The notes: generated by a model from the sequence alone, not told the origin. Counted from the stretch's first letter, positions 1,344-41,160 are shown. The stretch: 64,000 bases of DNA from Burkholderiales bacterium (GCA_038205245.1 JBBRCD010000001.1:58882-122881); one strand, 5' to 3'. Numbers and translations are program-made.

Positions 1344-1850
1344 TCAGGCACGCATCGCGGTCGCGAGCGAAGCCAGCAGTAGGGACAGCAGTACGACCGA
1401 GGTCAGCACAGAGCGCAGTGCAAGGTACCACGAGGGTAGCGACAACACCGCCGAGACGCGGAAGTCCACCGCCAGTTGCGCGATGAAACCCAGGCCGAGC
1501 ATCGCCAATGCAGGCACGAACCCGACCGCCAGCGCCAGCCATCCCCATAGCGCGGGAACCACCGACCAGCCGAAGCCGAAGCGCGCCGCGCGCCCGTTAC
1601 CGCAGAGCAGCGCCAGACCCCAGTGGATGGCGCCGATGAAACTGAGGATCAGCGCGGCATAGGTGAGGACCGACCACTCCAGAGATGACCGCATCGGGCC
1701 GTCGACGAACCACAGCGCCAGCGCGCCGAGCAGGAAAGGCAGCAGCCCGCCCAGACCCGGAAGCAGCGCGGCGCGCGGGGCATCGCGCAGCGCAGCCAGG
1801 CCCGGACGCAGCGGACCGGCGGAGACCATCGCGCCGTCGCGCACGGTCAT
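1344..1850 (-). CDS. DUF3429-like polytopic membrane protein
   Basis: Only the C-terminal 168 aa of the 443-aa track ORF look real: hydrophobic helices and 'FIGAIHWGLAL'. The ATG at 1850 overlaps the stop of the upstream gene (ATGA). Confidence 0.65.
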   Translation of the reverse strand: MTVRDGAMVSAGPLRPGLAALRDAPRAALLPGLGGLLPFLLGALALWFVDGPMRSSLEWSVLTYAALILSFIGAIHWGLALLCGNGRAARFGFGWSVVPALWGWLALAVGFVPALAMLGLGFIAQLAVDFRVSAVLSLPSWYLALRSVLTSVVLLSLLLASLATAMRA

Positions 1851-2407
1851 TTTCGGGTGAAGCTCAGCGTCACCTGGCCCAGGCGGATGCCCCACTTGCT
1901 CATCACCGCAGTGTTGAGCATCACCCGATCGTCGATCAGGTACATCCAGTCGTCGAACTGCACATGCCATGTTCTGCCGGACACCGGCAGCGCGAGGGTA
2001 TAGGCCCAGTAAAGCGCGTTGCCATGGGCCTTGCCCTGGGCCACGCCGACCACATCGTCGGCGGTGCCGGTGTAGGTGTTCGCATCGACCTTGGTGATCG
2101 TCCACACCCGGCGCTGCTTCTCGCCATCGGACCACTCGAAGCGTTCGTCCAGGGTGCCCACATTGCCGTTCCACTTCGCATCGATGGTCACCACGAACCG
2201 GCGCTCGACCTTGCCCGAACGGCTCTGGAACATGCCGTGACCGATCAGGGTGCCGTTGAAATAGCGCTGCAGGTCGAGCACCGGCTTTTCGGCGGAGTAG
2301 ACCTGCGGATCGACCGACGCGCATCCTGCCAGCATCAGTGCCAACAGTCCCGCGGCGAACATCGAGGAACCGCGCGAACGGCAAACGGCGAGCAGACGAG
2401 CGAACAT
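1847..2407 (-). CDS. DUF3833-like lipoprotein
   Basis: Signal peptide with lipobox 'LMLAGC' after an internal Met (ATG at 2407). The conserved C-terminal part 'WHVQFDDWMYLIDDRVMLN' was recognised from cfa-associated clusters. Confidence 0.65.
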   Translation of the reverse strand: MFARLLAVCRSRGSSMFAAGLLALMLAGCASVDPQVYSAEKPVLDLQRYFNGTLIGHGMFQSRSGKVERRFVVTIDAKWNGNVGTLDERFEWSDGEKQRRVWTITKVDANTYTGTADDVVGVAQGKAHGNALYWAYTLALPVSGRTWHVQFDDWMYLIDDRVMLNTAVMSKWGIRLGQVTLSFTRK

Positions 2408-2427
2408 GGAAGACCTCCAGGAAGTGT

Positions 2428-3729
2428 TCAGAACCGCTGGGCTCGCCAGGCCTGCCAGAGCAAGGCTGCCGCGACCAGCTTGAGTGCACAAGGAACAACC
2501 GCATAAGTGAACGCCAGCGCGGCCAGCGCCTCGGCGTCCTGCGACCCGCGCAGGTAGCCCAGACCTTCAAGCAGCGGCAGCGCGATGCCCCCGGCGATCG
2601 CCAGGGTGAGCTTGTTGACGAAATTCCAGAGTCCGAAGTAGGCCCCTTCGCGCTGCCCACCATGGCCGTTGGCATCGATCACCCGCGCGAGCAGGGCCGG
2701 CGGCAGCGCGAGATCGGCGCCGAAAGCAACGCCGGACAGCACGCAGATCGCGGCAAAGCCCCAGAGCGCGCCTGCATCCAGCCAGTAAGCCCAGACGAAG
2801 GCCGCGACAGAGGCCAGCATGCCGATCAGCCAGACCACATGCAGGCTGTAGCGGCCGGCGAGCCGCACCCATAGGGGCATGCTGGCTGCGCCGGCAATAA
2901 AGTAAAGCGCAAGGAATGCGCCAGTGTAGCCAGCCAGCCCGAGGCGGTCGGCCACGAAGAACTGGAACACGGTTGCGGTGATCGAGGGCGCGACCGCGTT
3001 CAGCGCGAACACCAGCAGCAGCCAGCGAAAGCGGGAACTGGCAAGAGGCACCACGAAGCTGGCGAACGGGTTGCCACCGGCCGCCTGTCGCGCCCGCAAT
3101 ACCGACGCCTCGGTCCTCTGCGGCTGAGGCGCATAGCGAGCAAGCACGATGACACCAAGCAGCAGCGCCACCAGGAACACGCCGATCAATGCCGGCATGC
3201 CCACCGCCTGCGGCAGCACTGCACCGATCAGCACGCCGACCAGTCCCGCGCCTTCGCGTGCGCCGGTAATGCGTGCGCGGCCGGCATCATCGCCAGCGAG
3301 CTCGGAACCCCAGGCCTGATAGGCAACGATGCCGAGCGAATAGCCCAGGTAGGCGCCGACCAGCGTCACCGCCAGCCAGAGTGCGCTGCCGGCATCGCCG
3401 AGCGCGTCCGGCGGCGACAGCAGCAGCACGAAGCTCAGTGCCAGAACTGGCGCGGCAATGAAGATCGGCAGCAGATAGGAACCGCCGACCTTCTGCGCGT
3501 CCACCCAGGCGCCAAGCAGTGGGTCAGCGACGGCATCGACCAATCGGGTGGAGAACAGGACGATACCGATCAACGAAAGCGACAGGCCGGTGCGTGCGTT
3601 GTAGAAGTCGGGCAGCAGGATGTTGATCGGCAGTGCCGTCATCAGCAGCGGCACACTGAACATGCAATAGGCAGCGAGCTGCGCACCGGTCAGCCGTGCG
3701 TTCCCGGCCGGCAAGGGCTGTCCGGTCAT
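2428..3729 (-). CDS. MFS-type transporter (GPH/folate-biopterin-like)
   Basis: 433 aa with about 12 hydrophobic segments. Conserved position inside the cfa-type cluster. Confidence 0.75.
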   Translation of the reverse strand: MTGQPLPAGNARLTGAQLAAYCMFSVPLLMTALPINILLPDFYNARTGLSLSLIGIVLFSTRLVDAVADPLLGAWVDAQKVGGSYLLPIFIAAPVLALSFVLLLSPPDALGDAGSALWLAVTLVGAYLGYSLGIVAYQAWGSELAGDDAGRARITGAREGAGLVGVLIGAVLPQAVGMPALIGVFLVALLLGVIVLARYAPQPQRTEASVLRARQAAGGNPFASFVVPLASSRFRWLLLVFALNAVAPSITATVFQFFVADRLGLAGYTGAFLALYFIAGAASMPLWVRLAGRYSLHVVWLIGMLASVAAFVWAYWLDAGALWGFAAICVLSGVAFGADLALPPALLARVIDANGHGGQREGAYFGLWNFVNKLTLAIAGGIALPLLEGLGYLRGSQDAEALAALAFTYAVVPCALKLVAAALLWQAWRAQRF

Positions 3730-24063: not shown

Positions 24064-25083
24064 TTACTCGAGCCTGGCTCCGCTCTCCTTCACCAGCTTC
24101 GCCCACTTGACCATGTCCGCGAGCATGTATTGGCGGAACGCCTCCGGCGTATTGCCCACCGGCTCGGAGCCGTCAGCGATGATCCGCTCGCGCACGTCCG
24201 GCTGGTTCAGGATCCGGATCAGTTCGCCGTTGAGCTTGGCTACCAGCGCCTTGGGCATCTTCGCCGGGCCGGCGATGCCGTACCAGCCGACCAGTTCGAA
24301 GCCAGGCAGCGCTTCGGAGACCGCCGGATAGTCCGGCAGCGCGGCGACGCGCTTCGGGTTGGACACCGCGATCGCTCGCAGCTTGCCGGCACGCACCAGA
24401 TTCTGCGCGGCCTGGATGCCGGCGAAGTTGTACTGGTACTGCCCGCCGAGCAGATCAGCCAGCGCCGGGCCGGAGCCCTTGTACGGAATATGCTGCGCCT
24501 TCACGCCAGCCATCAGGTTAAAAAGCTCGCCAGCCAGATGCCCGCCGCTGCCGATACCGGCAGAGCCGAAGTTGAGACCACCCTTGAAGCTGCGTGTCCA
24601 GTCGACGAACTCCTTCAGCGTTTTTGGCGGACTCGCCGGGTTGACCACCAGCAGCAATCCGGCCGCGGTGAGCTGGCTGATCGGCGTGAAGTCGTTCACC
24701 GGGTGATAGGGCAGCTTGCTGTTCAATGCTGCAGTGATCGTGTGCTGGTGATAGACCAGCAGCAGCGTGTAGCCATCCGGGGCCGCGCGTGCGGTCATCT
24801 CGCCGGCGTTGACCCCGGAGGCGCTCGCCCGGTTGTCGACCAGCACCTGCTGCTTCAACGACTCGGTCATTCGTGCCGCGAACAATCGTGCGAGGATGTC
24901 GGTGGTACCGCCCGGGGCAGCCGGCGTGATCAGCCTTATCGCGCGGTTCGGATAGTCGTCCTGCGCGAGCGCGGGGTTGGCCGCCACTGACCCGGTCAGC
25001 GCGGCCACCGCGAGCATCGACTTCAAGGCCACCCGCCACACCTGCCCGGCGGCCGGACGCGATTCATTCGGAATCGAAACCAT
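24064..25083 (-). CDS. Bug/TctC family substrate-binding protein
   Basis: 'YPNRAIRLITPAAPGGTTD' and C-terminal 'PEAFRQYMLADMVKWAKLVK'. GGAGGA lies 6-7 nt upstream of the ATG at 25083. Confidence 0.85.
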   Translation of the reverse strand: MVSIPNESRPAAGQVWRVALKSMLAVAALTGSVAANPALAQDDYPNRAIRLITPAAPGGTTDILARLFAARMTESLKQQVLVDNRASASGVNAGEMTARAAPDGYTLLLVYHQHTITAALNSKLPYHPVNDFTPISQLTAAGLLLVVNPASPPKTLKEFVDWTRSFKGGLNFGSAGIGSGGHLAGELFNLMAGVKAQHIPYKGSGPALADLLGGQYQYNFAGIQAAQNLVRAGKLRAIAVSNPKRVAALPDYPAVSEALPGFELVGWYGIAGPAKMPKALVAKLNGELIRILNQPDVRERIIADGSEPVGNTPEAFRQYMLADMVKWAKLVKESGARLE

Positions 25084-25199
25084 GCTGTCTCCTCCTTTTG
25101 GGTTGCCGGGGTGCTGTGCCGCACCTTTTCCGGATGGGCGGTCTGCGATGGCGACCCACCCTGTGGTGCCCGGCGCCGTCATGGACCGGCCTTCTCTGC

Positions 25200-25994: not shown

Positions 25995-26915
25995 ATGTCT
26001 ATCGGATGGTTCCCCGGCCATATGGCCAGCGCCCGCAAGAAGGCGGCGGAGACGCTGGCGAAGATCGACGTCGTGGTCGAGGTGATGGACGCGCGGCTGC
26101 CCGGTGCCAGCAGCAATCCGATGATCGAGGCGCTGCGTCGGCACCGGCAACGGCCGAGCCTGAAAGTACTGAACAAGGCCGACGCGGCCGATCCGGAGGC
26201 GACCGCCGCCTGGATGCGTCATCTGGTGGCGGCCACTGCCCGGGGCGACAAGGTGCAGGCGGTGGCGCTGTCCTGCCGCAAGGCGTCCGATGTGGCACGC
26301 GTCCCTCGTCTGGCCTTGGCGCTGGCGCCGCATCGCGACAGCGCTCTGAAGCCGTTGCGCCTTATGGTGATGGGCATTCCGAACGTCGGCAAGTCGACCC
26401 TGATCAACGCGCTGGCCAAGCGGCGGGTCGCCAATGTCGGCGACGAACCGGCGATCACCAAGAGCCAGCAGCGGATCGACATCAACGAGCAGCTGGTGCT
26501 GTTCGACACCCCGGGGCTGCTCTGGCCGCTGATCGAGCATCCGTCTGATGGCCTGATGCTGGCGGCGAGCCATGCCATCGGCATCAACGCCTACATCGAC
26601 GAAGAGGTGGCGAACTTCCTGGGCGAGACGCTGATCGCACGCTACCCGGCGCTGCTCGCGGCGCGCTACCGCTGCGATCCGGCCGGGCTCGACGGCCCGG
26701 ACCTGATCGATGCCATAGCACTGCGGCGGAGCTATGTATTGAAGGGCGGCGTTCCCGACCGGGAGAAGGCCGCGATCACCCTGCTCACCGACTATCGCAG
26801 TGGTGCGCTCGGGCGGATCAGCCTGGAGACGCCGGCGAGTCGTGCAGCGATGCTGGCCGCACCCGCGGATAAGCCCGCGGTGGTCGAGCCAGATCAGCCC
26901 GCCACCGGGGACTGA
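25995..26915 (+). CDS. ylqF: Ribosome biogenesis GTPase YlqF/RbgA (circularly permuted GTPase)
   Basis: 'WFPGHMASARKK' is present. 'VLNKADAAD' (G4) precedes 'GIPNVGKSTLINAL' (G1), showing the permuted motif order. ATG at 25995. Confidence 0.85.
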   Translation: MSIGWFPGHMASARKKAAETLAKIDVVVEVMDARLPGASSNPMIEALRRHRQRPSLKVLNKADAADPEATAAWMRHLVAATARGDKVQAVALSCRKASDVARVPRLALALAPHRDSALKPLRLMVMGIPNVGKSTLINALAKRRVANVGDEPAITKSQQRIDINEQLVLFDTPGLLWPLIEHPSDGLMLAASHAIGINAYIDEEVANFLGETLIARYPALLAARYRCDPAGLDGPDLIDAIALRRSYVLKGGVPDREKAAITLLTDYRSGALGRISLETPASRAAMLAAPADKPAVVEPDQPATGD

Positions 26916-27575
26916 TCCGCATCAACGGTCAATCAGCGGCGAACAACCGGCCGAGGTCGACCGGGAACGTACTGGTCGCGGACACACCATCGGTCCGGTG
27001 AATCTCGACAGTCGCCGTCTTCGGCTCCACGATCCACGCCTCATGTGCGCCGGCCCGAAGATAGCTCTGTGCCTTCTCGCGCAGTTCGCGCAACGAATCG
27101 TTCGGTGAGACTACCTCGATGCAGATCTCCGGAGCAGCGCGCAGAGCGACCTGCTCGGGATGCTGCTGCAGAAACACGTCGCTGCACCAGACGACGTCCG
27201 GCCCGCGCAGACCGATGTCGGTGATCATCCCGACCTCGACCATGCAGTGTCCGCCCAGTGCGTCCTCGACCAGTCGGACAAGTCTCGCCGCCGTCAGTCC
27301 ATGAGGCATAACTACCGGGGGATTCACCAGCACCTCTCCGAACTCGTTCAGCTCCACCCTGCCCGGATGGTCTCGATACGCCGGTACGTTCCATATCTCG
27401 CTCAGGCGGCGTTCCAGCCCGGCGGCATCGAGTGGCGCCGGTTTCTCACCACCGGAGACGGCGGACACACTGGGCGAACTATTCACGGTTGCACCTCATC
27501 GTTGCACCTCGATAGCCGGTCCAGGCGAACAGAATCACGCTAGAGTAAGGCAGATGCGCGTGCCAGAACAACCGG
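26671..27575. repeat. Left copy of long diverged direct repeat (ylqF 3' end + intact Uma2 + downstream)
   Basis: It aligns by eye with 32660-33065 at roughly 80-85% identity where both copies are present. The right copy lacks two internal blocks. Confidence 0.75.
26929..27486 (-). CDS. Uma2 (DUF820) family putative endonuclease
   Basis: 185 aa. '...PDVVWCSDVFLQQHPE...APEICIEVVSPNDSLRELREKAQSYLRAGAHEAWIVEP' matches the PD-(D/E)xK Uma2 pattern. Confidence 0.8.
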   Translation of the reverse strand: MNSSPSVSAVSGGEKPAPLDAAGLERRLSEIWNVPAYRDHPGRVELNEFGEVLVNPPVVMPHGLTAARLVRLVEDALGGHCMVEVGMITDIGLRGPDVVWCSDVFLQQHPEQVALRAAPEICIEVVSPNDSLRELREKAQSYLRAGAHEAWIVEPKTATVEIHRTDGVSATSTFPVDLGRLFAAD

Positions 27576-27618
27576 CGGGGTCAAGGGGTTGGTCGATCCG
27601 GTGTGACGCTGACAGAGG

Positions 27619-28086
27619 TCAAGCTGCCAAAGGTAGGCTCAGCAAACCCTTGACCGGCCGTTCAACCGCGTTGCTGTGAGGATACTTACGTACTAAATCT
27701 AACATTCCTCCAGGGCCGTGGTAGACAGCCTCATCGATCGACCATTCACCGTGCTCACCACGGCGCGAAGCAGCGAAGGCTATGGCGCATTTACCACGGT
27801 CTCCATTGATGACCATGACAAACCGAGCTGTGCTGTACGGCTTTGACATTCTGAAACCGAACCTTCCGATCCCTAGCCTCGTTGACCGTACATTCCCAAT
27901 GGCCAATGTTATTGCCGCATGATCCATTGCGTATCGTTCGGCGCTCTCATATGCGCCACTCTTTGCGATCACGAGATACGCGGTAAATGTTAATGCCAGT
28001 AAAAGCGCTAGAGCAATAGAGCCATGCCACCATAGTGGGTAACCGGCAACTTCTTTAGTGAAGAGTGACTTCGATTCCGAGGCCAT
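27619..28086 (-). CDS. Candidate Rhs immunity protein, single-pass membrane protein
   Basis: The ATG at 28086 lies inside the last 10 codons of the Rhs gene (32-nt overlap) with GGGGA upstream. TM helix 'WWHGSIALALLLALTFTAYLVIA' is followed by a ~110-aa domain. This is the most AT-rich stretch of the window. No family recognised. Confidence 0.5.
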   Translation of the reverse strand: MASESKSLFTKEVAGYPLWWHGSIALALLLALTFTAYLVIAKSGAYESAERYAMDHAAITLAIGNVRSTRLGIGRFGFRMSKPYSTARFVMVINGDRGKCAIAFAASRRGEHGEWSIDEAVYHGPGGMLDLVRKYPHSNAVERPVKGLLSLPLAA

Positions 28087-31000
28087 AAGCGAATCCCCAT
28101 TTCCCATAGCCACCACTGGACGGCCCGAACGGGATCTGCCCGTCAGCGCCGGCATAGCCCGTCATTGGAATCGCGCGAGGACCAGCAGAACCGACTGTAG
28201 TCGTGAATCCTCCCGAGAGCTGACCGCCAAGTCCGACACCAAGCGCGCCGATGCCGGCTTGACCAAATACGCCCGAGCTTGATTGTCCGGTAGGAAGACA
28301 TTGGGCGTCGCCGGCACCAGGACGCACACCGAGTGGGTCCCATGTAGCCTGAACGCCAAGACCTTTACCGAATCGAATCGAGACACCCGTCACGCGTCCG
28401 TTTCCGGTTAACGGATTGCCTGTTGCATGGACGATAACTCCGAAACCGAGACCGAAGTATCCTTCGATACCAATCGACCAGAGTCCGAACGGGTCGACGC
28501 GCATGAACGGATTTGATTGGGCGTACTTGTAGGTATTGATGCCCCCCGCCAACCCAATCGGATCGGCCTGGATGTACCGTCCCGTGAACCGATCGTAATC
28601 CCGAAAGTAGTTGTAGAACAACTCGGTCTCGACATCGGCGTACTGGCCGGGCATGCGCAGGTTGAAGGTGAAACTGCCCAGCCCCGAGGGGCTGGTGCTC
28701 GGCTGATTCCCGCCGAACGGCTCGTTGAGGTCCCAGCGCCAGCGCGCCTGGTTCATCACATTGACCATCAGCCGCGGGGTGCCGATCTGGTCCGGGTAGA
28801 TGTAGTAGATCTCGCTCGCACCTGCCGCCCCGCGCAGACTGGCCACCGGCAGGTCACCCAGCCAGACGATCTCCTGGATTGCGCTGCCGGCCAAATCGTA
28901 CTCCCCCAGCAGCCGGCCGGCCTCGTCGTAGATGAAGTAGGTGGCCGGATTGGCCGGCCCGCCCACCCGCTTGCTCACCCGCTCGCCGCGTGCGTTGTAG
29001 CCCGAGAAGACCACCTTCGAGGTGGGCGAGCCCGGCGTCACGGTCACCACCGCCAGTCGCCCGCGCGCGTCGTAGTCGTAGGCGCTGATGCCGTCGCTCA
29101 CCGCCCGCCCGGAGGCATCGTACCCGTACAGGCGCAAGGTCGAGGTCCCGCTCGCACTGTTCACTCGCTGCAGCCGATTGCTCGTAGCCTCGTACACGTA
29201 AGGTTCATTGGAGCGCGAGAGCCGGTTGCCATTCAGATCGTAGGTGTAGCTGCGGGTCGCGCCGGCAATGAAGCTCGTCAGTCGGTCGTTCGCGTCATAC
29301 CCCACCGGGATCGTCTGGCCGGGTAGCGACAGCGCAACGATGCGCGACGCCGCATCGTACGTCAGTGCCCGGGTCTGCGCACCCAGCGTGTAGCCGGTGA
29401 TGCGTCCATCCAGATCGCGCGGCCGTGCCGCCCGCGGCGTACCGCTGGCCGCCGAGAGGTCCCACCCGGTCACCTCGCCGAAGGGGTGATAGCTCACCTG
29501 GCCGATCAGCGGTGCGGTCCCGAGCGTCATCGAGGCGACGCGTCCGTTCGCATCCAGCGCAAACCCGATCTGGCGCCCGGACGGGTAGGTCAACCGATCG
29601 AGTCGACCATACGCATCGTATCGGTACTGGACGGTCAGCGCGATCGGGCCTGTGACCTGCGTCTTTGCGATGACGCGCCCACGGGCGTCGTACTGGAAGG
29701 CGGTGCCGCCACCAGGATCGGTGAAGGCGGTGAGCCGCCCGGCGCCGTACTGGCCCTGATCCCAGCTGAAGTCCTGCGTGATCGTCGCCTGTCCGCTCTG
29801 AGCATGCACCGAGCGCGTCACCCGGCCCAGCGCATCGCGGGTGTAGGTGGTCACACGTCCGGCTGCGTCGGTCTCGGTGGCGACACTGCCGGCGCTATCG
29901 AACGTGCGCGTGGTCGTGCCTCGGTCGCGCGAGACCTCCTGCGTCTCGTTGCCCAGCGCGTCGACCGTGTAGGCGGTCGGAATCGACCTGGGGTCGGTGA
30001 CCTGCGCCGTCTGGTCCAGCGCGTTGTACAGCACGCTCACCTGACCACCGTCCGGGGCGGTGGTTCGGGTGAGGCGGTTGAGCGCATCGTGGAGCCGGCT
30101 GGTCACATCGGCCAGGCCGGCCAGCGGGCCGTCGACCGTCGTGAGGTTGCCCTGGTTGTCGTAGCCGAATGCGCTCGTCTGCCCGGCCGCCCCGATCTCC
30201 TGCGCGAGGCGGTTGAGCGCGCTGTAGACGCGCGTGCGCGACTGGCGCAGGGCGCCGCCCGCATCGCGCACCTGCTCGGCGGTGCGGTTGCCCATTGCGT
30301 CCAGCGTGTAGTCAATCCGGTTGCCCACACCGTCTTCGATACCGATCAGCCGTTGCGCACCATCGTAGCCGTAGTCGATACGGCTGCCGTCGGGCTGCGT
30401 CACCCGTGTCAGCAGCCCCGCGGCGTCGTACGCGTAGGCGAGGGTCTCGCCGGCTATGGTCATCGAGGTCAGGCGCTGCCGGGCGTCAAAGGCGAGCGTG
30501 GTCGACACACCGTTCTCGTCGGTGATCGTGCGTGCGTTGCCGTGGGCATCGTGGTTACTGTAGGTGGTAGTCAGCGACGACGAGCCATTCACCTGGCGTG
30601 ATACCGACAGCAGATTGCCGTTGACCGGGTCGAAGGTCGTCGTAATGACGTCCTGCACATCGTTACGTGGGCCGTCTTCAACACTCTGCTCGATCAGTCC
30701 GGGGACTGCGCTTGAATAGGTGTGCGTCCAGGTCCATGTGCGCGTCCAGCCGCTGGCGACATCCTTCACCGCGCGCGACACCAGGTTGCCGCGTGTGTCG
30801 TAGGCCATCGAGGTTTCGCGCAGCGCCGTGCCGGTGTTGTTCTGCTCGGTCAGCTTGGTCGGCAGTCGGAAGCTCGTGTGCCACTCGGTCTGGATCGTGC
30901 GGCTCTCCGGGCGCACGGTGCCATTACCGTCCAGGCCTTCGGTGCGGCTCGTCTCCAGATTCCGCGCCAAGTCGTACCCGTACGTCGTCCTGAAACCGTT

Positions 31001-32540
31001 CCAGTCCGTCGTGCCAGACACGTTACCGTTGACGTCAAAGCTGCGCGCTGCGGGACCGCAAGCGGGACAAGGCGCAGAGTGGATCGAAGTGTTATACAGC
31101 GCATTGGCGATCGTGGTGAAACTGTAGGTACGCACCACCCCCAGTGGATCAGTCACCGTGCGATTAGCGGTATTCGGGAAGCTGACTTGGTACCGATTGA
31201 CCGATCCAGAGAGCTCGGTCGAAACAGCCCTGCCCGTGGCATCGTATCGATAGGTCGCAAAGCGAACGCCCCGCTCGTCGGTGATTCCGGTCAGGGCATT
31301 GGGGAGGTTGGCTCCCGCAGTATTGGCGGACTCGTTGTAGTGGTAGGTACGGAACGTCGCATCCGGATAAGTCACGCGGGACAGTCGCCCAGAAGAATCG
31401 TACGCATATTCGGTGATTTGGCCGGCCGGATCGGTCATTCGCGCAATGCCTCGGGCATCCCGGGCGTGGGTGAACGACAATGTGCGTCCCAATGAATCGG
31501 TCGCCGCAATCAACAACCCAGGGAAAGGCGCAACGGACGTCGGCGTGGACGTTGTGCTGTAGCTCAGGACAATCGAGGCGCCGCTACGCGAAGAGATGGA
31601 CAGGAGTTTTCCTGCAGCGTCGTAGCGTTCGACGTCCTCACTTGAGGCCACCGTGTACCGCCAACCAGAGAACACACCGCCTGTATCGACCACCCCGTTC
31701 CAGGGCATCGGATATGTCAGAATCGGGCAGGAACGTGCCTCCGACCAGCGTGAACACCAGCATCTTTCCATCTTCGCGATACGCGAAAGCCTTGCCCGAC
31801 GGGGGCGCCTCAGCGATCGACCGTGAGAAAGTATGCCGCCACTGGGGACCGATGTCCGAAGCCATTGGCGACTCGGTCGAGTTGTAGCGCCTCTCGAACC
31901 ACATGGCAAACTGCCCTTGCCCGCGATAGTCCGTTTGCCGAAGGAACTTGTTGCCGTTGCTACAATCGATTGGACAGCCTACGTGGCGACTTGCTCTTGC
32001 GTCGGGCTCTCCAAGCGTTTTCGGATTCCGATCCGGGGAAGGATCGGACGCGACGCGGCAGAACAGTCTCTCCTCATTCCCTGCCACGTACCACTGTGGC
32101 ATGCCGACTGAGACTTGGCGGTAACCAATCGAATCCATCGTGTAGGTGCACGACAAACCTTTAAGCAACTGTCCACTGAAGCCAGCGTGGCCGGGCTGAC
32201 CCGCAGGAGTACCGTTGTCTGCCCAACACGTTCCAATGACGGTGAATCGAATTATGGACGGGGCCGACCCGTAGCCTTCTGAGCTGCTAAACCAATTGAA
32301 CCATCGGTAGCCAGTGTTGGTTGTCAAGCGGGTACCCCAGATATTGACCGCTTCGCCGGGCGTTCGCCATTCAGGGCCTGAACCAACGAGTCCTCCAACG
32401 CAGCCATAGATCGTTACGGGCGGAACGTCGTATGCAGACCGGGCAATCGACGGCCACACGCCCGAAGCGACTAGCACGAACAACAGGAGGGCTCGCCATA
32501 CCTGGGGAACAATGGAGGGACTAACGATCGCTTGACGCAA
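28055..32540 (-). pseudogene. rhs: Rhs/YD-repeat toxin, split into two ORFs by a 1-nt frameshift in a G-run (about 31693-31697)
   Basis: The N-terminal ORF (32540-31638) carries 'CSNGNKFLRQTDY...RRYNS...GPQWRHTFS'. The second ORF (31909-28055) carries many YD repeats ('YGYDGAQRL', 'YRYDAYGRL', 'YDYDARGRL') and the core-ending 'DPIGLAGGINTYKYAQSNPFMRVDPFGL'. TTG start with GAGGA upstream. The break may be a sequencing error rather than a true pseudogene. Confidence 0.8.
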
Positions 32541-32659
32541 AGAGGTCCTCGTGGAAAACGCGCTGTCTCGTTACTACCCGCTGAGGATGGGCGAACTTTA
32601 TTGCGCCCTCTCGACTGGACTGATGGCGGCTTGATGAACTCTGCTACCTACCTGACCAT

Positions 32660-32910
32660 TGCGGTGATCCGGCCGGGCTCTACGCCCCGGCCCTGATTGA
32701 TGCCATAGCGCTGCGGCGGCGCTATTCATTGAAGGGTGACGTTCCAGACCGGGAAAAGGCGGCGATCACCGTGCCCACCGACTATCGCAATGACGCGCTC
32801 GGGGGATCAGTCTGGAGACGCCGGCGAGTCGGGCAGCGATGCTGGCGGCACCCGCGGTTCAATCCGTGGCGATCGAACCGGATGAGCCCGCCACTGCGGG
32901 CTGATCCGCA
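32660..32910 (+). pseudogene. Displaced 3' fragment of ylqF (frameshifted)
   Basis: It encodes 'DPAGLYAPALIDAIALRRRYSLKGDVPDREKAAITVPTDYRNDALGG', then loses frame through a 1-nt deletion relative to 26671-26915. Confidence 0.7.
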
Positions 32911-32914
32911 CGTG

Positions 32915-33000
32915 GGACCGCCTCGATGCAGAACTCCAGAGCAGCGCGCAGGGCGCCTTGCTCGGGATGCTGCTGCAGAAATCTGTCGCTACACGTCGAT
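32915..33000 (-). pseudogene. Uma2 endonuclease remnant (internal and C-terminal deletions)
   Basis: The minus strand encodes 'DRFLQQHPEQGALRAALEFCIEAV', compared with the intact 'DVFLQQHPEQVALRAAPEICIEVV'. Confidence 0.6.
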
Positions 33001-33319
33001 AGCCGGTCCAGGTGAACAGGATGGAGCCAGATCACGGCGCATGCGCGCACAGGAACCAGCGCGAGACGGCAATACCTGCTGCCCTGGTGTAAGTCGCTGA
33101 GCGCGTCGTTGGGCGGACTCTTCTGGGAGTTGAAGCGCACAAACACTTGGATACAACTGCGCATGATCCGGAAATCACCCGCTTACATCTGTGCGCTCCA
33201 ATAGGGACGTCGCGGATGCGGCATGTCCAATCCCGTGTGGATCGGACAGTCGGCAATGCTTCCCGGGCTCCCCAGCCAGACGCCCAGGTAGTCCCCCACC
33301 CATCAAACGGAGAACAACC

Positions 33320-39552: not shown

Positions 39553-41160
39553 CTATGCGCCCCCGTTGAAGCGGCGAAACTGGATCGCCTCGGCCACATG
39601 GACCGCCTCGATCGCCTGCGCCCCGGCGAGATCGGCGACTGTACGCGCGACCTTGCGGATACGCTGGAACGCGCGCGCCGACAGCCACAGCCGGTCCAGG
39701 GCGGACTGCATCAGGCGCAGCCCGCCATCGTCGAGCGCGCAGTGCCGATCGATCTGGCCGGCCTCCAGCAGCGCATTCGGCCGGCCCTGGCGCACGAGCT
39801 GGCGTTCACGCGCAATACAGACCCGGGCGCGCACCAGCGCGCTCGCCTCGGCTGGGGCGCCACGCACGAGGTCATGCTCGGTCACAGGTGGCACCTCGAG
39901 CGCGAGATCGATCCGGTCCAGCAGCGGGCCGGATACCCGGCGGCGATAGCGCGCGATCTGGTCCGGCGTGCACTGGCAACGTCCCGAGGGATGCCCGAGG
40001 TAGCCGCACGGGCACGGGTTCATTGCGGCCACAAGCTGGAATTGCGCCGGGAAGTCGGCCTGCCGCGCCGCGCGCGACACCGTGATACGTCCGCTCTCCA
40101 GCGGCTCGCGCAGCGCCTCCAGCACGCGCCGGTCGAACTCGGGCAGTTCGTCCAGGAACAACACGCCGTGCTGGGCGAGCGAAATCTCGCCCGGGCGCGG
40201 CAGACTGCCGCCACCGACCAGCGCCACCGCCGACGCGCTGTGATGCGGCGCGCGAAACGGCCGCTGGCGCCAGTGCCGGGGATCGAATCCCCGATTGGAG
40301 ATCGACTGCATGGCCGCGGCCTCGATCGCCTCGCTATCGGTCATCGGCGGCAGGATGCCGGGCAGGCGCGAGGCCAGCATGGTCTTGCCGGTCCCGGGCG
40401 ACCCCACCAACAGGAGACTGTGCCCGCCCGCCGCGGCCACCTCCAACGCGCGCTTGGCCTGCTGCTGGCCGGCGACGTCGGCCAGGTCCGCCACGGCGGG
40501 CGAAGACCCCGCGTCCAGCGCCAACGCAGGCAGGGGGGCCGAAGCGGGCTGGAACACCTCGAGTGGCACCACGCCCATCAGGTGCGCGCAGACCGAAAGC
40601 AGGGTCGGGGCAGCATGGACCCGGGCGCCCTTGACCAATGCCGCCTCGCGCGCGCTTGCCGCCGGCAGCACGAACGCGCGGCCGTCGCGTGCAGCGAACC
40701 AGGTCATTGCGAGTGCCCCGCGCACCGGTCGCAGTTCGCCGGTCAGGGCAAGCTCGCCGGCGAACTCGTAGCGATCCAGCGCATCCCGCCGCAACTGACC
40801 CGACGCGGCCAGGATGCCGAGCGCGATCGGCAGATCGAAACGCCCGCTCTCCTTCGGCAGCTCTGCCGGCGCGAGGTTGACGGTGATTCGGCGCGCTGGA
40901 AACTCGAAGCCGCAATTGACGATGGCGGCACGGACCCGCTCGCGCGCCTCGCGCACCTCTGCCTCGGGCAGCCCGACCAGGGCGAACGAGGGCAGACCAC
41001 TGGCCAGATGCACTTCAACGGTGACCGGGGGCGCCTCCATGCCGACCAGCGCACGGCTGCGCAGCACTGCCACGGCCGACACTCGCGGCGTTGTGGGCGC
41101 CGGGTCGGATGCATCGCGTGCCGGCTCACTCGTCGCCAGCTCAGGCCCGCCGGCAGACAT
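39553..41160 (-). CDS. comM: YifB/ComM family Mg-chelatase-like AAA+ ATPase
   Basis: Walker A 'GSPGTGKTMLA', 'LFLDELPEF', and the C-terminal Cys cluster 'NPCPCGYLGHPSGRCQC'. Confidence 0.9.
   Translation of the reverse strand: MSAGGPELATSEPARDASDPAPTTPRVSAVAVLRSRALVGMEAPPVTVEVHLASGLPSFALVGLPEAEVREARERVRAAIVNCGFEFPARRITVNLAPAELPKESGRFDLPIALGILAASGQLRRDALDRYEFAGELALTGELRPVRGALAMTWFAARDGRAFVLPAASAREAALVKGARVHAAPTLLSVCAHLMGVVPLEVFQPASAPLPALALDAGSSPAVADLADVAGQQQAKRALEVAAAGGHSLLLVGSPGTGKTMLASRLPGILPPMTDSEAIEAAAMQSISNRGFDPRHWRQRPFRAPHHSASAVALVGGGSLPRPGEISLAQHGVLFLDELPEFDRRVLEALREPLESGRITVSRAARQADFPAQFQLVAAMNPCPCGYLGHPSGRCQCTPDQIARYRRRVSGPLLDRIDLALEVPPVTEHDLVRGAPAEASALVRARVCIARERQLVRQGRPNALLEAGQIDRHCALDDGGLRLMQSALDRLWLSARAFQRIRKVARTVADLAGAQAIEAVHVAEAIQFRRFNGGA

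Follow-up and report, generated by a model that had tools for sequence, protein, structure and literature searches.

A glycine-rich, beta-patterned Rhs tip and a Coa1-like membrane protein as a candidate toxin-immunity cassette of a new family in a Burkholderiales bacterium

We analyzed a 64,000-nucleotide (nt) stretch of DNA from a Burkholderiales bacterium (GCA_038205245.1, JBBRCD010000001.1:58882-122881; "the window") in which an Rhs gene on the minus strand ends in a 141-amino acid (aa) tail (28058-28480, minus strand; W1-H141) and is followed by a small open reading frame (ORF) of 155 aa (27619-28086, minus strand; MASESK...). On balance, we lean towards the interpretation of the tail and the ORF as a toxin-immunity cassette of a new family carried by a Sec-exported Rhs protein, in which the tail would be a membrane-inserting, oligomerizing beta-hairpin toxin and the ORF its antidote. 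The components of this interpretation differ in strength. The assignment of the pair to toxin and immunity is well supported, and a membrane target of the tail is plausible given its amphipathic strands, paucity of charged residues and membrane-anchored partner. A more specific version, which we put forward only tentatively, is that the tail could be the first beta-hairpin (beta-barrel-type) pore-forming Rhs cargo, with a Sec-exported mode of delivery independent of a type VI secretion system (T6SS) and a periplasm-facing neutralizer of the Coa1 fold.

The Rhs core ends with the sequence NPFMRVDPFGL at aa 1143 of the ORF that encodes the YD repeats, core and tip (28055-31909, minus strand), in agreement with a previous sequence-only reading of this DNA. 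The C-terminal plug with the aspartyl autoprotease, which terminates in DPFGL, is recognized as the Rhs-associated core domain (TIGR03696, Rhs_assc_core; 3.3e-19) at aa 1064-1143 (28481-28720, minus strand), and, by analogy with established Rhs/Tc biology, autocleavage is predicted between L1143 and W1144. The tail that follows contains 38 glycines, as counted in that reading, or 27% of its residues, whereas glycines make up 10% of the core and never exceed 15% of a core window of 141 aa. Charged residues account for 8% of the tail, and their minimum in core windows of the same length is 15%. The sequence-only reading further perceived a stacked GxxxG run and took it as a sign of a glycine-zipper toxin, a rationale that fails. 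Because 27% of the tail residues are glycines, GxxxG is expected to occur often; the tail contains 8 such motifs, compared with 9.8 +/- 2.2 in 2000 composition-preserving shuffles, no GxxxGxxxG (2.4 expected) and 5 small-xxx-small triplets (9.0 expected). The run itself holds only two GxxxG motifs (G81xxxG85 and G86xxxG90), the GxG spacing is at least as common in the tail as GxxxG (11 vs 8), and the region is predicted to form a beta-hairpin instead of a helix. The short stretches of alternating hydrophobic residues that the same reading noticed are confirmed: the period-2 hydrophobic moment of the tail is 0.97 vs 0.61 +/- 0.10 in the shuffles (z = 3.5, attained in 0.1% of these), and its helical hydrophobic moment is below the shuffle mean (z = -1).

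Within the tail family, P54, G55, S68, G70, G76, G91, Y109, G119, G129, G135, T139 and H141 are invariant, and E6, H18, D48-P49 and E137 are nearly conserved. The dN/dS ratio between the window tail and its counterpart in locus L001 is 0.10 (0.09 outside the overlap with the ORF), with dS >1, so the tail is a constrained protein rather than a product of low-complexity drift. Modeling with AlphaFold2 from the single tail sequence was unusable (predicted local distance difference test, pLDDT, 33). With an alignment of 8 sequences, the model reached a pLDDT of 67.3 and a predicted template modeling (TM) score of 0.60 and consists of six strands of 13-20 residues each (aa 2-20, 29-48, 67-79, 82-94, 106-118 and 128-140), with no regular helix; a 3-residue turn at 23-25 is the sole helical element. 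The supposed zipper run corresponds to the tight hairpin formed by strands 67-79 and 82-94. The hydropathy averaged over the family alternates in all six strands, with Kyte-Doolittle (KD) values of +1.5 to +2.6 on one face and -0.7 to -2.0 on the opposite one. In five of the six strands, the polar face is 35-50% glycine, and the conserved polar residues lie on it as well. The hairpin turns comprise 8, 2 and 9 residues. In the model, the strand order would put the three turns on one side and the termini together with the long conserved loops, including DPLGxRPGAGD, on the opposite side, a geometry that would fit hairpin tips crossing the bilayer from the delivery side.

The sequence-only reading recognized no enzymatic motif in the tail, and profile and structure comparisons led to the same result. 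None of the 8 family members has a Pfam match at E<=10, the tail has no NCBIfam match, and a phmmer search of all chains in the PDB returned nothing at E<=10. A Foldseek search with the alignment-based model against the PDB and BFVD yielded no match with E<0.01; the best ones (E 0.013-0.056, TM-score <=0.32) are generic beta structures of GFP, lectins and capsids. We considered an outer-membrane beta-barrel of the OmpX, OmpA or PagL kind, which has at least 8 strands, and rejected it: the prediction yields six strands, and the sequence terminates in T-x-H or a Cys-containing tail, with no aromatic beta-signal. The Foldseek matches to outer-membrane proteins are not significant (best E 0.087-0.84, TM-score about 0.2).

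The second component of the putative cassette, the 155-aa ORF, starts inside the Rhs gene. Given the ATG at 28086, the two genes share 32 nt including the Rhs stop codon (28055-28086, minus strand), precisely the overlap previously noted, and GGGGA is located 7 nt upstream of this ATG. Alternative in-frame ATGs are present at 28107 and 28155, and the residues before M17 are not conserved in L001. The ORF was described earlier as a single transmembrane helix attached to a domain of no known family. The helix is there (aa 23-41, SIALALLLALTFTAYLVIA; 27964-28020, minus strand; mean KD 2.3), but the domain (27712-27963, minus strand) appears to be a remote member of the Coa1 family (PF08695, cytochrome oxidase complex assembly protein 1). 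The flank N-terminal to the helix is net positive in 6 of the 7 members of the ORF family that were scored, which, by the positive-inside rule, suggests that the N-terminus is cytoplasmic and the C-terminal domain periplasmic. The Coa1 assignment was reached through homologs, by hhalign, Pfam and BLASTP. The ORF downstream of the tail in locus L034 (8400-8771), which is present although the database does not annotate it, matches Coa1 with 24.5 bits, above the Pfam gathering threshold of 22, over positions 4-110 of the 117 in the profile. The window ORF is 34% identical to this ORF (BLASTP, E 6e-25), and, in an hhalign comparison, the pair of window-type ORFs matches four others with a probability of 96.8% (E 2e-10). 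The window ORF, being homologous to the Coa1-matching L034 ORF, is thus classified, by transitivity, as a divergent member of the Coa1 family. The ORFs of L006 and L002 score below the threshold (21.8 and 17.2 bits, respectively), the window ORF has no direct Pfam or NCBIfam match, NCBIfam returns nothing for the ORF family, and a search of the PDB with the ORF-family profile gave nothing meaningful. The Coa1-like domain is characterized by the motif S.AY..A...(x)..G.V....LG.GRF.F...S.....F...V.G......F......G.W.V..A.

The co-occurrence of the tail and the ORF in other genomes, which had been proposed as a check on the pairing, supports the ORF as the cognate partner: in all 8 lineages for which downstream DNA is available, the tail is succeeded by a homologous ORF (the window, L001/L002, L003, L004/L005, L006, L009, L028 and L034). 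The partner ORFs encode proteins of 114-188 aa, each comprising one N-terminal transmembrane helix and, after it, a domain of some 90 aa, and start within a few bases of the stop codon of the tail: the 32-nt overlap recurs in L001/L002, the overlap is 4-13 nt in other lineages, and, in L034, there is a 6-nt gap. Like the tail, the ORF is under purifying selection (dN/dS 0.14, dS >1, window vs L001). The ORFs diverge faster than the tails, with 70% identity between the tails and 29% between the ORFs of L004 and L009, and 61% and 34%, respectively, between the window and L034. Such faster divergence is typical of immunity proteins and has been noted for those that neutralize ionophores of contact-dependent growth inhibition (CDI) systems (PMC11630599). 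A mirror-tree comparison of tail and ORF pairwise identities was not significant (r = 0.33, p = 0.15) and, with 7 lineages, is uninformative. Our literature search found no report linking Coa1-family proteins to T6SS or toxin immunity.

The tail family is small, with about nine lineages among some 15 billion proteins. When 5.8 billion clusters were searched with a word index, a single relative emerged, P0001, with 82% identity, on a 906-nt contig from the Joint Genome Institute (JGI), and an exhaustive HMMER scan of 1.84 billion representatives added six true relatives, P0003-P0008, with 33-61% identity, along with one match that proved to be a spurious repeat protein. A profile search revealed no additional relatives of the tail. 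Among the 11 matches to a hand-made degenerate DNA pattern in the GTDB genomes, the sole true locus is L009, which belongs to a metagenome-assembled genome of an unclassified Pseudomonadota bacterium (JAZKGZ010000012) and is the only genomic relative. The same kind of pattern gave 16 matches in JGI metagenomes, including L028, the DNA that encodes P0007; the match L026 was spurious. Scanning the GTDB genomes with peptide patterns of the close relatives gave no true match, and neither did tblastn with the tail and the ORF in a plasmid collection. All tail members with upstream sequence start directly after an Rhs end (DPLGLW, DPSGLW or DSFGLW). The tips of the window, L001 and P0003 terminate exactly at the conserved His, and those of a subclade comprising L004/L005, L009, L028 and L006 carry a short Cys-containing extension after T-x-H (GNCK, GGCN, GSGCK, LEKCGC). 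The only intact full-length Rhs protein with such a tip is P0003 (1777 aa; L034, Logan SRR30196963, 3060-8393), in which a Sec signal peptide is accompanied by Kelch, Big_5, CarboxypepD_reg and DUF6531 domains. Upstream of it on the same contig, there are two genes for large secreted proteins, at 14-1516 (with one YD repeat) and 1529-3037 (Gly-rich).

The previous observation that the stretch around the tip and the ORF is the most AT-rich DNA in the window holds: among the 500-nt windows across the 64 kb, GC content is the lowest at 27501-28100 (0.52-0.55 vs 0.653 overall), and it falls at the junction between the core and the tip. L003, L004 and L006 contain short core stubs followed by the tip and the ORF, amid other small modules; L009 encodes a truncated Rhs with the tip, then the ORF and another orphan Rhs fragment; in L002, an Rhs-core fragment immediately follows the ORF. 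These orphan stub-tip-ORF modules, together with the drop in GC content, amount to the classical Rhs toxin-immunity layout. The entire Rhs-plus-ORF module of the window (approximately 27575-32660) is bracketed by two copies of the same flank, an intact one (26671-27574, plus strand) that consists of the 3' end of a ylqF-like GTPase gene and a Uma2-family gene (26929-27486, minus strand), and a decayed, internally deleted direct copy (32661-33061, plus strand) that is 74-86% identical to it, with a remnant of the Uma2 ORF at 32859-33164. This duplication suggests an island acquired by recombination with the donor flanks.

The Rhs gene of the window is interrupted. Its 5' ORF (31638-32540, minus strand) encodes a probable signal peptide, about 150 aa with no named domain and, at aa 188-263, DUF6531 (PF20148, 7.7e-13), the Rhs N-terminal plug. 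The YD-repeat shell is encoded in a second reading frame (28481-31909, minus strand), with 17 stretches of RHS_repeat (PF05593, 4.5e-77; also TIGR01643 in NCBIfam) and matches to the Rhs cocoons in the PDB (7q97, 8cp6, which is Tse5, and 8h8a), which cover the shell only. The two ORFs overlap in different frames, and the stop of the 5' ORF is due to a frameshift, so that, as sequenced, no single intact frame runs from the N-terminal plug to the tip. The removal of one G from the GGGG run at 31693-31696 (minus strand), the probable site of the 1-nt frameshift, restores a single ORF of 1494 aa, from 32540 to 28058, with no internal stop; the coding sequence of the shell probably starts near 31696, and whatever the listed ORF contains upstream of this point is not in the coding frame. 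The site was located by reconstruction of the frames, which appears to confine it to 31641-31754; the alignments with P0003 and the PDB Rhs proteins are too divergent across the junction. The split gene is either a pseudogene or the result of a homopolymer sequencing error. With the gene frameshifted, the toxin may not be made in this genome, and the cassette may be inactive here unless the frameshift is such an error.

Judged by eye, the N-terminus of the 5' ORF is probably a signal peptide of the Sec type (MRQAIVSPSIVPQVWRALLLFVLVASGVWPSIARS/AYD) and not a T6SS adaptor. The features expected of a T6SS-delivered Rhs effector, namely, a PAAR-like N-terminus or an adjacent VgrG, an EagR/DUF1795 chaperone and T6SS genes, were not found in the 64-kb window: Pfam searches of the Rhs ORFs, their neighbors and large ORFs sampled across the window detected no PAAR, VgrG or T6SS family. 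P0003 and its 10-kb contig contain no T6SS genes either. The tail family appears to ride on Sec-exported, T6SS-independent Rhs proteins.

The mechanism that we favor can be outlined as follows. The 141-aa tail would be packed inside the Rhs shell until autoproteolysis at DPFGL/W sets it free. The tail, all-beta, Gly-rich and almost uncharged, would form three long amphipathic beta-hairpins, each strand exposing one hydrophobic face and another composed of Gly, Ser, Thr and Gln together with E6, H18, D48, S68, Y109, D113, E137, T139 and H141. The hairpins would insert into the membrane of the target cell from the periplasmic side. Since six strands cannot close a barrel on their own, the tail would have to oligomerize, and the resulting pore, narrow and probably cation-conducting, would dissipate the membrane potential. 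The ORF product would be a single-pass inner-membrane protein, the Coa1-fold domain of which would face the periplasm, bind the tail at the membrane surface and block its insertion or assembly in the producer cell.

Among the characterized systems, the proposed cassette can be likened to Tse5 or Tse4 in its mode of action, with no relatedness detected to Tse4 or, among the PDB chains searched, to Tse5. Tse5 (PA2684, RhsP1) of Pseudomonas aeruginosa is an Rhs-encapsulated, pore-forming, depolarizing toxin with a membrane immunity protein, Tsi5 (PMC9637101, PMC10684867). The shared features are the Rhs cocoon (the window shell matches that of Tse5 in the PDB, 8cp6_B, 2.4e-31), a C-terminal cargo not assigned to an enzymatic family, a DPxGL-type autocleavage site and a membrane protein encoded immediately downstream; the Tse5 cargo is hydrophobic, membrane-inserting and depolarizing, and Tsi5 resides in the inner membrane. 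Tse5-CT is predicted to consist of transmembrane and amphipathic alpha-helices, whereas the window tail is predicted to be all-beta; no PDB chain matches the tail, but only a 1121-residue Tse5 chain was seen, from which Tse5-CT is possibly absent. Furthermore, Tse5, which is PAAR-like at its N-terminus, requires VgrG4 and the H1-T6SS, unlike the window Rhs with its Sec-type signal peptide and no T6SS neighbors, and Tsi5 has two transmembrane segments, compared with the one helix plus Coa1-like domain of the window ORF. Tse4 (PA2774), with its partner Tsi4, is a Gly-rich, Hcp-dependent T6SS ion-channel toxin (PMC12169545) that has been modeled as a beta-barrel resembling Ntox25 (PMC11630599). 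It is similar to the tail in being small (195 aa vs 141 aa), Gly-rich, poorly charged and outside any enzymatic family; it was first termed a glycine-zipper protein and later modeled as beta, acts at the inner membrane and has an inner membrane-associated immunity partner. In contrast to the tail, Tse4 is a stand-alone Hcp cargo rather than an Rhs tip. Tse4 itself has no Pfam match. For the Pfam model of Ntox25, a survey of polymorphic toxins mentions an FGPY motif (Zhang et al. 2012, PMC3482391); none of the 8 tails has a Pfam match, so there is nothing to connect them with Ntox25, and the FGP at aa 118-120 of the tail is not conserved in the family.

The ionophores of the CdiA-CT(EC93) type, with their CdiI immunity proteins (PMC11630599), and the other glycine-zipper depolarizing toxins, EsxX (PMC12744356) and CdzC/CdzD (PMC5380434), offer a looser parallel. 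The CDI ionophores and their like are polymorphic-toxin C-termini that dissipate membrane potential and are countered by membrane proteins more polymorphic than the toxins. The zipper toxins are helical bundles that share only the helical GxxxGxxxG, unlike the tail, in which GxxxGxxxG is absent, GxxxG is not enriched and no helix is predicted, and their delivery scaffolds are the type V, type VII and type I secretion systems. The ORF shares with the Coa1 family an architecture in which an N-terminal transmembrane anchor precedes a domain of about 90-100 aa, but is located in an Rhs toxin cassette instead of among respiratory genes. Term searches of the PMC3482391 survey did not find the tip and immunity families among its toxin and immunity domains. 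As a whole, the locus conforms to the plan of classical Rhs elements, with a break in composition between core and tip, a translationally coupled immunity gene and orphan cassettes in relatives. Classical Rhs elements combine a GC-rich core with an AT-richer tip and give rise to orphan cassettes of a core stub, a tip and an immunity gene.

Several observations weigh against a beta-hairpin pore delivered in this manner. The model of the tail is of medium confidence, being built from 8 sequences, and does not distinguish between a barrel, a sandwich and an open sheet; a monomeric barrel would need more than six strands, and Foldseek searches of the PDB and BFVD produced no significant match to a membrane barrel or a beta-pore-forming toxin. 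An hhalign comparison of the family profile with Tse4, rebuilt from the 100%-coverage mass spectrometry peptides (PMC12169545 S2) with the internal peptide order guessed, returned a probability of 0.3%. The topology of the ORF is read solely from the positive-inside rule, no T6SS, PAAR or VgrG in the 64 kb indicates a route of delivery, and the Rhs gene carries the 1-nt frameshift. Finally, the invariant S68, Y109, T139 and H141, with the conserved E6, H18, D48 and E137, could form a catalytic or ligand-binding site. Hence an alternative that we consider rather unlikely, under which the pair is a genuine toxin and immunity protein but the tail is a small beta-rich enzyme or ligand-binding toxin instead of a pore: either a membrane-embedded lipid hydrolase or acyltransferase, PagL- or PagP-like, using the conserved Ser, His and Glu, or a toxin that binds some target in the periplasm or the membrane, for instance, lipid II or a transporter. 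These residues persist across 33-80% identity, all the conserved polar positions map to one face of the predicted strands, the Gly/polar one, where a pure pore might tolerate more variation, and a domain of the immunity protein that probably faces the periplasm would also suit an enzyme acting there. However, acidic and polar residues would be no less expected along the lumen of an ion-selective pore, the profile and fold searches matched no enzyme, PagL, PagP and OMPLA are absent among the Foldseek matches listed, and such a low charge combined with 27% Gly is unusual for a soluble enzyme.

It is a realistic possibility, although not the one that we favor, that the module is a dead remnant, in which the Rhs gene is a frameshift pseudogene and at most the ORF is useful, as an orphan immunity gene against neighbors with an intact toxin. 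The signal peptide and DUF6531 are indeed out of frame with the YD repeats, deletion of a single G at 31693-31696 restores one ORF, the decayed duplication that flanks the module indicates a rearranged region, and neither the Rhs protein nor the ORF has a 100%-identity match among the approximately 15 billion proteins. Yet, a 1-nt indel in a run of four Gs in DNA with 65% GC is a common assembly or sequencing error, and the 4.5-kb frame is otherwise free of stops, so inactivation, if any, would be recent. Moreover, this possibility concerns expression in the given strain rather than the identity of the cassette and is compatible with the toxin-immunity interpretation. Far less probable, to the point of being nearly dismissed, is a structural role of the tail as a C-terminal domain, for example, an outer-membrane beta-barrel anchor of a surface Rhs protein, with the ORF being unrelated or an assembly factor. 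The all-beta amphipathic pattern with aromatic residues at strand ends would fit such a role, and so would the presence, in both full-length members, of Sec signal peptides and of domains of the surface type, for example, Kelch, Big_5 and CarboxypepD_reg. The tail, however, starts exactly at the Rhs autoproteolysis motif, where the cargo begins in all characterized Rhs/Tc proteins, and is found in orphan cassettes with short Rhs stubs; it has only six predicted strands and a C-terminal His or Cys-containing tail in place of the aromatic beta-signal of outer-membrane proteins, its matches to which are not significant; and the fast divergence of the partner fits immunity better than a conserved assembly factor. 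We continue to favor a membrane-inserting toxin paired with its antidote.

The neighborhood of the module in the window includes metH, genes for a major facilitator superfamily transporter and RidA, a ComM-like gene, the ylqF-like GTPase gene and the Uma2-family gene, and a promoter and terminator scan of the module found nothing. The ComM/YifB-type, Mg-chelatase-like gene (39553-41160, minus strand) has a counterpart in L009 (416-2029), in each case a few kb from the Rhs gene; this proximity could reflect chance or a shared neighborhood. The gene at 24064-25182 (minus strand) resembles, by eye, that of a Bug-family substrate-binding protein (tripartite tricarboxylate transporter); together with the 65% GC content, this would point to a host of the Burkholderiales type. 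Other small modules accompany the cassette in its relatives: a type II toxin-antitoxin-like pair, HicA and DUF7387, lies beside the L004 cassette (1277-1697), and two adjacent small ORFs of 100 and 143 aa next to the L009 cassette (2544-3277) are similarly type II toxin-antitoxin-like. In L003, a Gly-rich ORF of 136 aa ending with VGGH (1779-2189) comes directly after the tip-ORF module, with no Rhs stub, and the ORF after it (2191-2598) contains a long hydrophobic stretch and likely encodes a membrane protein; the two may be another membrane-toxin and immunity pair. The Gly-rich ORF was tried as a distant relative of the tip and rejected (hhalign probability 0.1%).

With the tail and the ORF, a putative toxin family and a putative immunity family, both of them new, are added to a familiar kind of system. 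New Rhs tips with no assigned function are common, which lessens the weight of the finding, as do the extreme rarity of the family, the deduced nature of its mechanism and the possible inactivation of the window copy. Nevertheless, polymorphic toxins, Rhs among them, rank as a major source of novel antibacterial activities. To our knowledge, the membrane-depolarizing cargos are few and, so far, either helical (Tse5-CT, the CDI ionophores) or poorly understood (Tse4). An all-beta, Gly-faced, nearly uncharged cargo would add a different route for breaching membranes from inside the Rhs cage, and the tail would offer a compact model of beta-hairpin insertion. We know of no other characterization of the Coa1 family in bacteria, and the partner gene is a concrete candidate for a function of the bacterial Coa1 branch. 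If the more specific version of our interpretation, a beta-hairpin pore neutralized by a Coa1-fold protein, is correct, this cassette would define a previously unseen toxin fold family and, for the first time, give bacterial Coa1-like proteins a role, that of immunity factors.

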